64,000 nt of DNA from Candidatus Latescibacterota bacterium (GTDB taxonomy: Bacteria; Latescibacterota; UBA2968; UBA8231): assembly GCA_965204725.1 (NCBI GenBank), contig OZ242005.1, positions 3,776,001 through 3,840,000 of the forward strand. The letters are read 5' to 3'. Position 1 is the first letter of the stretch. The number at the start of each line of letters is the position of its first letter. Positions 52,604 through 60,779 of the stretch are shown in pieces. The position numbers and the translations under genes were made by a program. The notes under the pieces were generated by a model. It saw only the letters and a program-made list of their open reading frames with translations, was not told the DNA's origin and did not search any database.

Positions 52604-53626
52604 CTAGGGCGGTCCGGGCTTATTCGTTGATGGATGAGCCTGTACGCCCGGGAGACGCTCTTTGATGGCGATGGCCAAATCCACTCCGTGGTTTCGTGTG
52701 TTATCCGTGACAACTTTCTTGGCCCTCGTCGCCTTAACGTACTCAAGCGTCTCATTGAAGTCCGCATGATTAGATAACGCCACCCTATAAGCCCGATCCG
52801 AATATGTCATCAGCGGATCATCGGTATTGGCCATGTACGCGCTGCATGTGACGCTTGTTTCGCCGATTAGTTCGTTGCCAAAACCATCTCCCTTTGAATA
52901 CAGTCGAATATAGGCTCGTTCCCTCATGGCAGATTGACCTGAGTCCGAGTCGAGTGCGTATAGGTCCCCGATAGCGGATCCGTAATTTTGATAGACCTTC
53001 ACTTCCCCAATGAGTCGTTCGCTGGCCAGAATCGGAACCCCTACGTTGACCCCGAGTACATGCAACACGCGCTCGATAGTTCCTCTGTGAGCTTTGACAT
53101 GCACAGAACCATGTCGCAGTCGCTCACATACGAGGTTTAACAGACACTCCTCCGCTTCCGCTTGGGTGTAGCGGCGTACGCTTCTGGGGCTCCCATAGGT
53201 GCTGTCCACAACAAGCTCATCGACTTGAATAACCTCATTGAGAGGCCAGCCGAAGTCACTTGAATAGCCGACTCGGAGGCCATCGGGTAATTCCAGCGCG
53301 ACTTGACACGAGCCGAGCATGTGGTTGGAGGGAAGAAGGGATAGCTTCGATCCGTCGTTGAGCACACGCTCGTCGCCTCGATTTACTTGGTGGATGTTGT
53401 CACGGAACTCAAGGTCTGCATTGAGTTCCTCTACCAGAAGTGCATATGTTTCTGGACTCATCAGAAAATCCTGAAAGCCCTTGCTCTTGTCGAATTCGCC
53501 CATGTGGTCATCGTGGATATGTGTCTGGACGCGGAAAGGGTATCCTTCGGCGAAACCATCACACACTACTTTTGACCCGAGGCAGACCGCACCACTCGCA
53601 AGAACGTCAACAATGGGGTCGGGCAT
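52604..53626 (-). CDS. Metallo-beta-lactamase/beta-CASP fold nuclease
   Basis: THIHDDH (HxHxDH), NHMLGS, YSSDF, VDSTYG, SNHAD motifs. Confidence 0.85.
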   Translation of the reverse strand: MPDPIVDVLASGAVCLGSKVVCDGFAEGYPFRVQTHIHDDHMGEFDKSKGFQDFLMSPETYALLVEELNADLEFRDNIHQVNRGDERVLNDGSKLSLLPSNHMLGSCQVALELPDGLRVGYSSDFGWPLNEVIQVDELVVDSTYGSPRSVRRYTQAEAEECLLNLVCERLRHGSVHVKAHRGTIERVLHVLGVNVGVPILASERLIGEVKVYQNYGSAIGDLYALDSDSGQSAMRERAYIRLYSKGDGFGNELIGETSVTCSAYMANTDDPLMTYSDRAYRVALSNHADFNETLEYVKATRAKKVVTDNTRNHGVDLAIAIKERLPGVQAHPSTNKPGPP

Positions 53627-54329
53627 TCTCAACAGTCTCCGAGATGTGGATTCGAAGCCGCGCCTCAATGCTCTCCTTGCCAATGCTCTTCATTGACGCA
53701 TCAAAGCACTCGTTTCCGACTAGTGTGAAGAACCGCTTTCCGAGCCGACCGGATACTCCCTGGAGGTTGAGGAGATTGATACCAGACTCAAGAATCGAAT
53801 CTCTCTCCGTCTGTGTGAGCTCAGTGAGAGCGTCCCCGACATTCTGATCAACAACCGAACCGATGAAGACGTAGCGTCTTTCGATTACTGGCCGCATACC
53901 TAAGATTTCCTTTAGGCATGTGCAAATAGGACGTTTTGAGCGCATTCTGAGTTGAACGACCTGTCGGACCTCCTTTCCATTGAGGCCGTCTGCGAGGATC
54001 GAACTAGCGACGGTACGCTGATCGTCAAGGTCCTGAAGCCGTACCAACTCAATGGCGGACGAAAAGCCGATAGCGTCCTTGCCAGCTCCCCAATCAACTA
54101 GGTGCCGAAGATCGTGAGGTAGGTCGAGAATTCGTAAAAAACGACCTACGCCTGTTCCGTCAATGCGGGCCTCGGTTGCACAGTCCCTAAGAGATGCACC
54201 TGAATCGCGAGCTTTGCGGAAAAGTGATCCCACCTCTATGGGAGAGTACGGGCGCCCCTTCTTGTGTGTCCCGTAACCTATGGACATCCGAAGGCGTGCA
54301 AGTTCTAAGGTGCTCAACCCGGCCAGCAT
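53607..54329 (-). CDS. ParB-like HTH-domain protein lacking the CTPase domain
   Basis: YSPIEVG...GASLRDCA...VGRFLRILDLP...FSSAIEL..LQD...Q...IL.DGLNGKEVR resembles ParB central domain. Confidence 0.65.
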   Translation of the reverse strand: MLAGLSTLELARLRMSIGYGTHKKGRPYSPIEVGSLFRKARDSGASLRDCATEARIDGTGVGRFLRILDLPHDLRHLVDWGAGKDAIGFSSAIELVRLQDLDDQRTVASSILADGLNGKEVRQVVQLRMRSKRPICTCLKEILGMRPVIERRYVFIGSVVDQNVGDALTELTQTERDSILESGINLLNLQGVSGRLGKRFFTLVGNECFDASMKSIGKESIEARLRIHISETVENARPHC

Positions 54330-54334
54330 CGACT

Positions 54335-58357: not shown

Positions 58358-59556
58358 GCCGAAGCCTCTTCAGGATTAGGAGTAATCGCTTCGTGCAGGG
58401 CCGAACGACAGTCTTGGCGAATTTGGTCTCGACGCCAGATGTCCTCGATGACGTCGAGTTCTGATTTGGTAATTAGCTGTTGTTCTGTGGCTTGTTCCAA
58501 AGCCTGCAATTCGCTCAGGATACGCCTGCGGACATCGAGTTTGAAAGGTCCCATGACAGGAGTTCCGTCGGCACGGGATTTCAAGTTTCCATCTCGCCGT
58601 ACGCGCTGACGATTTGCATCGTCTTCGCGGAGTTGGACTAGCCGCTCACGGAAGTCGAAGAGACGTGCGAAAACCTCTGCATCTTCGTGGCCAGAATCGA
58701 TTAAGCCACGCAAGCTCCGATCTTTACTAACGACGGTACATGTCCAGCAACCGAATCTAGGTGAGGTTGTTCCACATGAGGGCGCATCGTCCTTGGTCAG
58801 TACCAGCGGGCATTCCCCTCCACCAGCATTCCGATACAGAGTGATTAGATCGTGATGCGAGCCGCCCCATGGTGGCCTTCGTTGCATCAGGATCAGCCAC
58901 ACATCCTCGTCTTTGAATTCGGCGAGTGGTGCGAATATACGGCACCCCTCGACAGAACTGTGAGGATTCATCTTGGTTGCCGAAACCCCGTGCTTTGCCA
59001 TGTTGCGGCGACGGCTCTCGGACTCACTCTTGCGCGTTCCTACCAATAGCACAGTGCGCTTGTGCGTACGAACAAGACTTTCGAGTAGTTGGCTAGTTGG
59101 GACAATTTTCATTCGATCGGTACACCATCGAAAATTCCGTGTCGGGGGAATGTAGCCACGTCCAATCACGTTGACCCAGAAAGTTTGATCGATATGCGGC
59201 CTCGTGATCTGCGTCTCGATCGGCAGTTCGTTCTCGGTGGCAGCGGTGCTGATCGTCGATATGGTAGTTTTGAGATGCCGGATGACCAGCGGCGACTCGA
59301 CTAGCGTATCATTGCCTACGATATAGACCTTGCGCCGTCGCGAGTGAACAGGAAGCGATGCCAGCATCTCCCATATCAGTTGGAGCAGCAAGGTCGAATC
59401 CTTTCCACCAGAATAGGCCACTATCCACGGATCGAGATGCTTACGCAAGTATTCCCTCCGAATGATGTCCATGGTGGCGTTGAGCCGCTCGACGACACGG
59501 ACGATTCCATTATGGCTATCGCTTGCGCCGGATCTCTGCTGGGTGCGCTCGTTCAT
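58354..59556 (-). CDS. dndC: DNA phosphorothioation sulfurtransferase DndC (PAPS-reductase-like)
   Basis: [26 protein letters not shown]...[15 protein letters not shown]...[19 protein letters not shown]. Confidence 0.93.
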
Positions 59557-60779
59557 GTCATCACTGTCGGCCGTACCCGAGGATACGGATTAGTGGCACG
59601 ACCACTTCGGCAAATTGCTCGCCACTGAGGGGACAACTGGCGCAAAGCGTCAACGGAGTTCCGTACACATGCTATCGCGAAGTCGACTTCCTCTTCGGTT
59701 GTGAATCGCCCGAGGCTGAAGCGGACTGAACAGCTTGCGAGATCCTCGGATAAGCCTAGCGACCTCAATACATAGGAAGGCTCTACACGCGATGACGTAC
59801 AGGCCGAACCAGATGAGATAGCAACGTCCTTCAACGACATCATTAGGGACTCACTCTCGACGCAAGCAAAGCCAATGTTCACGATTCCTGAAACGCGATT
59901 CGCTCCATTGCCGTTTACGAAGGAATACTCAATATCTGCAAGACGATCAAGCAAGAGGCGATCGAGCTTGGCAATAGCTTCGACATCGCGGCTTCGACGT
60001 TCGCGTGTCAACTGTGCGGCCGCGCCCATGCCGACTAGTTGATGTGTTGCCAGCGTCCCCGATCGGAGACCCTGCTCTTGGCCACCGCCGTGTATTTGAG
60101 GCTCGATCCGGATGCGGGGCCAGCGACGCACGTACAATGCTCCGACGCCCTTAGGTCCGTACATCTTGTGTCCGCTAAGTGAAATAAGATCCGCTTGCAT
60201 AGATCGCGTATCAAGCGATAGACGAGCGGCACTTTGAGCCGCGTCCACATGGAATGTGACCTCACGGGCGCGAGTTATTTTGCTTATCGCATTGACGTCG
60301 GTGATAGTGCCGACTTCGTTGTTCACATGCATAAGGGAGACAAGGATGGTGTCTTCCCTCAGCACTCTCTCCACGAGTTCTGGGGAGATTAGACCGTCCT
60401 GCTTAGGACTGATATAGGTAACCTCGAATCCTTCACGGGATAGCTTATCGCATGAATCCAGAACCGCTTTGTGCTCCAGACTTGAGGTTACAATATGTTT
60501 GCCTCGGTGGGCATATCCATGCGCTACGCCCTTGATAGCCAAGTTGACGGATTCGGTAGCTCCCGATGTCCAAACGATCTCGGACGGGTCAGCGTTGATG
60601 AGCTGGGCCACCTGATCCCGTGCCTTCTCCACTGCCGCTTCGGCTTCTTGGCCGAAGCGGTGTGAACGCGACGCGGCGTTGCCGAACGTCCCATCCAGCC
60701 CTAGGCACTGGGTCATCACCGCGATGACTTGCGGGTCGACAGGCGTCGTTGCGGCATAGTCCAAATAGACGGGGTACAT
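59553..60779 (-). CDS. iscS: IscS/DndA cysteine desulfurase
   Basis: [26 protein letters not shown] (PLP Lys), [16 protein letters not shown]-coupled to dndC. Confidence 0.95.

Follow-up and report, generated by a model that had tools for sequence, protein, structure and literature searches.

DNA phosphorothioation (PT), the sulfur modification of the DNA backbone, is currently attributed to the Dnd, Ssp, Tdp and BREX type 4 systems (PMC12914056), and each newly established PT system has changed our understanding of this modification. The canonical DndABCDE system is organized around a DndD/CxC-DndE core (PMC10853773), and in Salmonella enterica Cerro 87 an IscS-DndBCDE system works with DndI, a PT-sensing NTPase and nickase (PMC11662687; PDB 9JFL). 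Here we describe a cluster of seven co-directional open reading frames (ORFs; g1 to g7) on the minus strand at 52604-60779 of a 64,000-nucleotide stretch, hereafter the window, of contig OZ242005.1 from a Candidatus Latescibacterota bacterium. The operon is best explained as a horizontally acquired PT-type modification and defence island made of two conserved modules, a reading to which we give a probability of roughly 0.6. Module 1 (g1-g3) encodes a cysteine desulfurase, a short DndC and a DndI-like protein, and module 2 (g4-g7) an SNF2-family ATPase, a ParB-type protein, a ParB-type helix-turn-helix (HTH) protein and a putative metallo-beta-lactamase-fold (MBL) nuclease (Table 1). Judged from sequence, the cluster is rated a PT-based defence variant without DndD and DndE, in which phosphorothioation, PT sensing by g3, an effector role of module 2 and defence against phages or plasmids are putative functions.

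By similarity of sequence and of predicted fold, the closest relatives of g3 are DndI and then SspE, both known PT-sensing effectors. Its best sequence match in the PDB is DndI (9JFL, E 5.2e-13), over both domains and at the same length; the same entry is the top fold match of the AlphaFold2 model (predicted local distance difference test, pLDDT, 87; Foldseek E 2.2e-16, TM 0.66/0.67), followed by SspE and then BrxU, and the identity to DndI is only about 16-17%. Across 24 sequences the segment N77-R82 (NDGQQR) is nearly invariant, and E500, H501, N530 and N546 are invariant. Among the PADLOC models, g3 matches HEC-06 and 'Orf5', and SspE weakly; the 'Orf5' models are suspected to represent DndI from their alphabetical place among the Dnd, Pbe and Ssp models. 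Since g3 is closest to DndI, IscS-DndBCDE-DndI is the closest published architecture, sharing with the cluster a desulfurase, a DndC and a DUF262 (DGQQR) plus DUF1524 HNH protein. Nevertheless, DndD, DndE and DndB are missing here, g3 is translationally coupled to dndC whereas DndI is co-transcribed with dndFGH (PMC11662687), and the DndC binding predicted for g3 is not reported for DndI in the accessible part of that source. The original prediction, which did not list this system, held that the seven genes match no recognized architecture; the DndI-like nature of g3 gives the cluster a known relative. In our literature search, neither the seven-gene order, nor a DndC-DndI pair lacking DndD/E, nor a ParB-HTH-MBL cassette was found described; the supplementary neighbourhood tables of PMC10853773 and PMC12914056 may contain such loci, and the accessible part of PMC12914056 names, among putative new systems and with no detail, a dndC neighbourhood containing DUF262.

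The remaining products of module 1 bear out the earlier assignment of the locus to the PT type, with an unambiguous DndC and a desulfurase of its own, both of which exceed a family cut-off (Table 1). The DndC, g2, is the only one in its genome. Its match covers positions 8-365 of the 447-position TIGR03183 model, and the protein is shorter than full-length DndC by about 84 C-terminal residues. The SGGKDST motif and Cys145, Cys249, Cys261, Cys270 and Cys273 are kept in 31/31 members of the clade described below and in 53/53 other DndCs. Against PADLOC models, g2 scores as DndC (E 1e-115), ahead of BrxP (E 3e-13) and SspD (E 5e-7). The PADLOC model PDLC03333, labelled 'MTase_II', also matches g2 over most of its length (E 7e-70); this label appears mistaken, unless the model includes a DndC-like domain. 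In the case of g1, the score against the DndA model TIGR03235 (414.6 bits) lies under the equivalog cut-off of 480, and the PADLOC SspA/DndA models match at E 1e-156 to 1e-158. A second IscS/NifS-like gene occurs elsewhere in the genome (507 bits), and g1 is therefore an extra, cluster-linked copy.

Other PT systems share fewer parts or different ones. The canonical DndABCDE system has DndA and DndC homologues in common with the cluster; DndB, a PT-binding HNH endonuclease and dnd_rel_methyl occur in related loci, and the closest sister DndCs (44-53% identity) are likewise short and stand beside DndD/E. SspABCD-SspE offers a similar pairing of an enzyme of the phosphoadenosine phosphosulfate (PAPS) reductase type with a DUF262/DUF1524 PT-sensing nickase, but g2 scores as DndC and not as SspD, and a search confined to the seven proteins found no SspC-type ATPase. 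Precedents for PT synthesis without DndD/E are provided by Tdp (tdpABC), of which tdpC alone is stated to be sufficient, and BREX type 4 (brxPCZL) (PMC12914056); unlike the latter, the seven proteins, to which the Pfam and PADLOC searches were confined, include no PglZ, BrxC or BrxL.

The absence of DndD and DndE extends to a whole DndC clade. A scan of one genome per species provided 80 DndC loci, which were searched with all seven proteins; their ORFs were clustered and a DndC tree was built (L028, with a short or interrupted high-scoring segment pair, lies outside the tree, L086 is absent, and L001 and L002, from the window's own genome, were not included). The 31 closest loci, at 56-71% DndC identity, form one branch (support 99) apart from the DndD/E-linked DndCs, and their record names span at least ten phyla. 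A further locus, L071, joins them in a 32-row branch (support 100) and belongs with the clade because it has no DndD match and has a DUF262/HNH neighbour (23% identical). In tblastn searches with the DndD and DndE sequences of two annotated plasmid loci, neither protein was found in any of the 31 close loci, bar one 56-aa P-loop match in L020; applied to the 49 more distant loci, these queries recovered DndD from 43-44 and DndE from 37. At the genome level, DndD above its cut-off was missing from 10/11 genomes tested: it was found in 0/1 for the window's own genome (best match 21 bits, cut-off 245.85), 1/5 for other genomes with the seven-gene arrangement (type B) and 0/5 for those with a GIY-YIG/DndB arrangement (type A). 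The claim that DndD, DndE, SspB and SspC are all lacking thus stands in part: no DndD was detected in the own genome, the DndE (TIGR03184) and DUF4007/SspB models found no match there and were equally silent in control genomes, and SspC was sought in the seven proteins only. DndB was not found in the own genome either. Several members of the clade are single-chromosome assemblies according to their record titles, and the absence of DndD/E across the clade goes against the explanation, given in PMC10853773, that the obligate DndD/DndE pair is missing owing to poor assemblies.

Within the clade, the DndI-like gene is the one constant neighbour of dndC. It follows dndC in 28/31 close loci and the desulfurase precedes it in 20/31. 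The exceptions to the former are L027, L034, in which another HNH protein replaces the DndI-like gene, and L035, a 1.8-kb contig. At L027 (9977-17500), a 588-aa fusion of an S-adenosylmethionine methyltransferase with an HNH domain takes its place; next come a 131-aa ORF, a g6-like gene (63% identity) and two ORFs of 356 and 709 aa for which Pfam gave no match.

The DndI-like protein is also the predicted physical partner of DndC. The g2+g3 complex prediction scored 0.68 (median of three runs), against 0.40 for the best of three controls, and in a calibration that is only rough the same mark was reached by 58/80 solved complexes and by 2/110 mismatched pairs; the score expresses the confidence of the model and is not a measurement. 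At least 81% of the contacts were common to the runs, and partner pLDDT was at least 82. The predicted interface places the C-terminal tail of g2 (364-394) against the helical middle of g3. We know of no solved DndC-DndI complex. The prediction shifts the balance in favour of a complex of writer and reader over two enzymes acting freely. In such a scheme, the g1 desulfurase would pass sulfur to the short, catalytically intact DndC, which would be docked by its tail onto the DndI-like NTPase/HNH nickase, and the g2-g3 pair would dispense with both the DndD ABC-ATPase and DndE. Like DndI and SspE, g3 most probably recognizes PT marks and nicks DNA that lacks them, and it may also provide DndC with access to DNA.

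Module 2 proved separable from module 1. The recurrence of the seven-gene order in unrelated genomes, which the original prediction proposed to examine, was found, far in excess of chance: the complete order is repeated in L005, L007, L017, L023, L029 and L033, as well as in L100 from the same-genus genome G150, and L019 carries all seven with module 2 inverted on the other side of the cluster. The other six genes stand in order in L006 and L024, with no IscS match in the locus. The full SNF2-ParB-HTH-MBL cassette is nonetheless present in only 9/31 close loci (L005, L006, L007, L017, L019, L023, L024, L029 and L033), and L016 ends after SNF2. Eleven loci carry directly downstream, instead of the cassette, a small GIY-YIG gene and a DndB-family DGQHR gene; a DndB-family gene occurs somewhere in 18/31 loci, including L007 and L019. 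Cassette and GIY-YIG/DndB loci are interspersed on the DndC tree, on which the cassette requires 3-5 changes. Because DndA-DndC-DUF262/HNH mostly occurs without all four other genes, the seven genes are two separable modules and not one seven-part machine, contrary to the earlier view of a single distinct system. Compared with L100, the window is 75% identical in g3, 87% in g1 and 92-96% in the other five genes; the g3 differences (window 56567-58357 against L100:4731-6521) are spread along the protein, and no hypervariable specificity region is claimed.

Several of these neighbourhoods deserve individual mention. The cassette of L025 (12975-16400) breaks off after SNF2 and the initial 43% of ParB, with a 505-aa ORF following on the other strand; the near-identical L029 holds the full cassette, and the truncation may reflect insertion or decay. 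A PT-DNA-binding restriction endonuclease (NF045808, 312 bits, cut-off 180) adjoins the cluster at L006:17145-18041, and ORFs of L014 and L035 fall in the same BLAST cluster; a PT-dependent cutter beside a presumed PT writer, as in L006, is odd. Outside the window, its own genome contains a fragment (G000:C1:3152366-3152704, 111 bits) that matches the N-terminal part of the PT-DNA-binding restriction endonuclease model and has an in-frame TAG, which may be a decayed PT reader. The dnd_rel_methyl gene was found in L019 (scanned) and L030 (by clustering).

The proteins of module 2 comprise a motor, two ParB-related proteins and a putative nuclease, and the earlier domain calls for the SNF2 and ParB members, as for the DUF262/HNH protein of module 1, hold in the Pfam and TIGRFAM matches. 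The ATPase g4 is a bare SNF2 core with visible GKT and DEAQ motifs; it resembles the C-terminal motor parts of the PADLOC ZorD and DpdE models and also matches the DrmD model. Residues 7-163 of g5 match Noc/ParB/Spo0J chains of the PDB (E 1e-12), and a GQRR box is visible. The call for g6 is supported by its fold and that for g7 comes from weak matches and a visible motif, the family matches of both lying below cut-off. Lacking the ParB N-domain and any similarity to g5 detectable by BLAST, g6 gave an AlphaFold2 model of pLDDT 95.2 (alignment with 51 relatives from a representative search), whose first ~130 residues match ParB/Noc/Spo0J DNA-binding domains (Foldseek E 3e-3, prob 1.00; TMt 0.82 to that of Noc). 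Its family comprises 472 clusters at 50% identity in a metagenome-rich library. The g7 sequence carries an HxHxDH motif (HIHDDH) and weakly matches TIGR04122 (E 9e-16, under cut-off) and Lactamase_B_2; its PDB matches are SNM1A (E 2.6e-4, residues 24-150 only) and CPSF3 (E 0.01), and its family counts 1220 proteins at E<=0.001. Read from a TTG, the g7 ORF spans 52604-53683 (359 aa); since proteins of its family measure about 340 aa, the ATG at 53626, assumed as the start in the original prediction, is the likely one. A 582-aa protein, P0267, fuses the g6 family (residues 11-231) to the g7 family (241-574; 49% identity to g7), in agreement with the 20-bp overlap of the two genes, although the fusion could be a gene-calling artefact across a frameshift.

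As an exchangeable multi-gene cassette with a motor and a nuclease beside PT modification genes, module 2 resembles DndFGH, PbeABCD and SspFGH. However, none of these systems includes ParB, a ParB-HTH adaptor or a beta-CASP nuclease; g5-g7 match none of the Dnd, Pbe or Ssp PADLOC models, and none appears among the matches listed for g4. Identity with Pbe was rejected, as PbeA is a phospholipase D (PLD) plus helicase protein and PbeC is SMC-like (PMC6459918), unlike the parts found here. Zorya, Dpd and DISARM were likewise rejected, since only the SNF2 core matches. The cassette looks like an undescribed PT-associated effector cassette. By analogy with the three exchangeable systems, module 2 is most likely a second nuclease effector under the control of PT status, in which the SNF2 motor and the ParB clamp-type protein would guide, through a ParB-HTH adaptor, the beta-CASP-type nuclease tied to it; it would plug into several kinds of DndC operon as a separate unit. 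Given the relatives of g7, the main alternative to this effector role is one in repair.

The association of module 2 with PT genes was also approached through g7, and not through DndC, in metagenome contigs and in the window's phylum. All four g7-found loci with enough flank adjoin a PAPS-reductase-family gene, of four different kinds (Table 1), and from these loci the constant core of module 2 is ParB-HTH-MBL, with SNF2 as a frequent but optional part. It is unlikely that two unrelated defence systems simply lie side by side, DndA-DndC-DndI-like and a PT-independent SNF2-ParB-HTH-MBL. Such an arrangement would be in keeping with the separability of the modules, the restriction of the full cassette to 9/31 loci, its inverted position in L019, and the general tendency of defence genes to cluster (PMC12914056). 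Against it stand the PAPS-reductase neighbours in 4/4 g7-found loci, the place of the cassette between dndE and dndA on the same strand in L092, and the overlapping module junction in the window. In addition, a search of 72,556 plasmids returned nothing for g6 and two weak matches (22.9-24.5% identity) for g7, and g7 patterns matched no viral contig in a pattern scan that finds close relatives only.

The same loci bear on the earlier proposal that SNF2 and ParB proteins supply DNA tracking within the modification machine, in place of DndD/E or SspB/C. The proposal takes some support from the lack of DndD/E in cluster and genome and from the Dpd system, whose ParB-like ATPase DpdB reportedly powers the insertion of the base by DpdA (PMC12839542), a precedent for a ParB protein assisting a DNA-modifying enzyme. 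It is contradicted by L092, where the same cassette lies inside dndC-dndD-dndE...dndA together with full DndD and DndE (498 and 89 bits), and by L090, where it stands beside dndD-dndE-like-dndC: a cassette that occurs with full DndD/E cannot replace them. Moreover, only 9/31 loci of the DndD/E-less clade hold the full cassette, about half carrying GIY-YIG and DndB in its stead, and the predicted partner of DndC is g3. We regard this role as quite unlikely.

A comparably low likelihood attaches to a role of module 2 in the repair or processing of DNA nicked or oxidatively damaged at PT sites, and not in action against invaders. Arguments for it are that the family g7 matches best, TIGR04122, is one of ligase-associated DNA-damage-response exonucleases, that SNM1A, the closest solved relative of g7, is a repair nuclease, and that the cassette travels with modification genes and not with known restriction genes. 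All g7 matches are, however, under family cut-offs, the combination of SNF2, nuclease and ParB-superfamily parts is typical of defence, with ZorD, DpdE and DrmD among the g4 matches, and the patchy, transfer-prone distribution better fits conflict systems. Least likely of all, and very improbable, is that the clade performs no DNA phosphorothioation, its DndC being inactive or thiolating or adenylating another substrate and g3 an ordinary GmrSD-type type IV enzyme, as might be supposed because DndC enzymes are held to need DndD/E (PMC10853773), g2 lacks ~84 C-terminal residues and BrxU, a GmrSD type IV enzyme, is among the fold matches of g3: the PP-loop and five cysteines are invariant in 31/31, equally short DndCs work beside DndD/E in sister clades, a desulfurase is adjacent in 20/31 loci, the neighbourhoods contain DndB, PT-DNA-binding endonuclease and dnd_rel_methyl genes, and for PT synthesis by the Tdp system, tdpC is reported to be enough on its own (PMC12914056).

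Several points weigh against the reading of the operon as a two-module PT-type modification and defence island. The Dnd modification component is held to be non-functional without its ABC ATPase and DndE (PMC10853773), and one of the seven-gene type B genomes, G003 (that of L024), does encode a canonical DndD (C1:537459-539333, 487.8 bits) about 40 kb from the cluster; two PT-type systems may coexist there. The PT-sensing tyrosine of DndI, Y25, aligns with H30 of g3, a nearly invariant histidine beside a nearly invariant Trp29, in an alignment (HMMER) that is uncertain at this identity. The complex prediction was made from shallow alignments (26 and 24 rows) and judged by a rough calibration. 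The genomes found through DndC are a biased sample for linkage of the modules, and the unbiased sample for module 2 amounts to four loci. Finally, metagenome-assembled genomes may be incomplete or chimeric, and the window's own genome, 94% complete, has an estimated contamination of 10%.

A well-supported DndC clade without DndD and DndE, present in complete chromosomes and in many phyla, stands against the current view of an obligate core (PMC10853773), and the DndI-like protein, predicted to dock on the tail of DndC, is a concrete candidate partner in place of DndD/E. Should the g2-g3 pair make PT, it would be a minimal two- or three-gene writer/reader, and census figures for PT systems would have to be revised. 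With the ParB-HTH/beta-CASP cassette, PT-based immunity would gain a further type of effector, and a ParB-type protein a job outside segregation. A bolder reading can be offered only tentatively: a fifth PT route, in which a DndC-DndI-like complex writes and reads the mark without an SMC/ABC ATPase or DndE, backed by an unnamed PT-reader cassette (ParB, ParB-HTH, beta-CASP, with or without SNF2) that occurs in at least four kinds of PAPS-reductase operon and has spread by transfer among many phyla.

From its distribution, the locus seems to be exchanged heavily within microbiomes whose record names suggest an association with sponges. Many record titles refer to groups such as Spongiihabitans, Poriferihabitaceae and Porisulfidus, and the carriers are apparently sponge-associated, to judge from such names only. 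Six sequencing runs, from four studies, contain this DNA, and no RNA run was listed among them. Defence genes are known to be enriched in sponge-associated microbiomes, and in metagenomes of sponges Horn et al. observed an enrichment of Dnd genes 'even though not functionally complete' (PMC5099237); for Thaumarchaeota from sponges, Moeller et al. recorded dndA and dndC as well as 'dndB-like' genes of the DUF262/DUF1524 type (PMC6790972). Both observations would be consistent with a system that lacks DndD/E, and the fifth route, if true, would explain the enriched yet incomplete Dnd genes of Horn et al. At a finer scale, g7 occurs in 5/168 genomes of the window's phylum and in 3/31 of its genus, and the g6 family was found in none of 400 other sampled genomes of the phylum of G003. 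Together with the low guanine-cytosine (GC) content of the island (52.3%, against 63% on either flank), this patchy presence indicates horizontal transfer.

Table 1. Features of the cluster and its upstream region in the window, and gene content of the four loci found through g7 (scores in bits with model cut-offs, or E-values)
Feature	Position	Strand	Evidence or gene content
g1, IscS-type cysteine desulfurase in the DndA role (408 aa)	59553..60779	-	NF010611, 585 bits, cut-off 548
g2, short DndC, PP-loop sulfurtransferase (400 aa)	58354..59556	-	TIGR03183, 344.9 bits, cut-off 290.4
g3, DndI-like, DUF262 (DGQQR NTPase) + DUF1524 HNH nuclease (596 aa)	56567..58357	-	Pfam GmrSD_N E 7.5e-21, GmrSD_C E 1.2e-23
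g4, SNF2-family ATPase core, bare motor (467 aa)	55167..56570	-	SNF2-rel_dom E 7e-42, Helicase_C E 3.5e-20
g5, ParB/Noc-type, N-terminal NTPase fold + HTH (275 aa)	54335..55162	-	ParB_N E 1.3e-14; TIGR00180 76.5 bits, cut-off 58.45
g6, ParB-type HTH DNA-binding domain + C-terminal alpha/beta domain (240 aa)	53607..54329	-	HTH_ParB E 0.0021, sub-threshold; fold
g7, putative metallo-beta-lactamase-fold nuclease, SNM1/CPSF (beta-CASP) type (340 aa from ATG 53626)	52604..53626	-	weak family matches, HIHDDH
Upstream intergenic region (227 bp) with candidate promoter	60780..61006	-	sigma-70-like TTGACC-16-TACTAT at 60924-60897, 9 of 12
L092			dndC (568 bits), dndD (498), dndE (89), SNF2, ParB, HTH, MBL, dndA; all on one strand; dndD and dndE above cut-off
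L090			dndD, dndE-like, short dndC, dnd_rel_methyl, SNF2, ParB, HTH, MBL
L088			dndA, dndD, dndC on the strand opposite ParB, HTH, MBL
L098			divergent PAPS_reduct protein, dnd_restrict_1-like helicase, DndD-like ATPase, 151-aa ORF, ParB, HTH, MBL

The compact layout described in the original prediction, with overlapping or 4-5 bp junctions, was confirmed by ORF coordinates and junction sequences: g1/g2 meet in ATGA, g2/g3 in TTGA and g3/g4 in TTGA with an immediate ATG, the gaps are 4 bp between g4 and g5 and 5 bp between g5 and g6, and g6/g7 overlap by 20 bp provided that g7 begins at the ATG at 53626. The seven genes leave no space for small ORFs between them. The reading as an operon follows from these junctions and not from the promoter match, and the single upstream promoter that had been proposed is unproven, promoter-like sites being about as frequent in the region (7) as expected from shuffles (6.1); scans of this region for terminators and promoters gave chance-level results only. 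A tRNA scan of 40000-64000 found none, and there were no convincing flanking repeats.

According to Pfam, the flanking genes, a pyrroloquinoline quinone (PQQ)-dependent dehydrogenase and a metallophosphoesterase-like gene, are unrelated to the island. The dehydrogenase gene (window 49879-52437) belongs to a multi-copy family present in every genome of the genus, with two further copies at 87-88% identity elsewhere in the own genome, and a copy also adjoins the seven-gene cluster in G150. Just upstream of the island, at 62063-63973, a 636-aa protein carries a C-terminal type IX secretion sorting domain (TIGR04183, 27 bits, cut-off 23).

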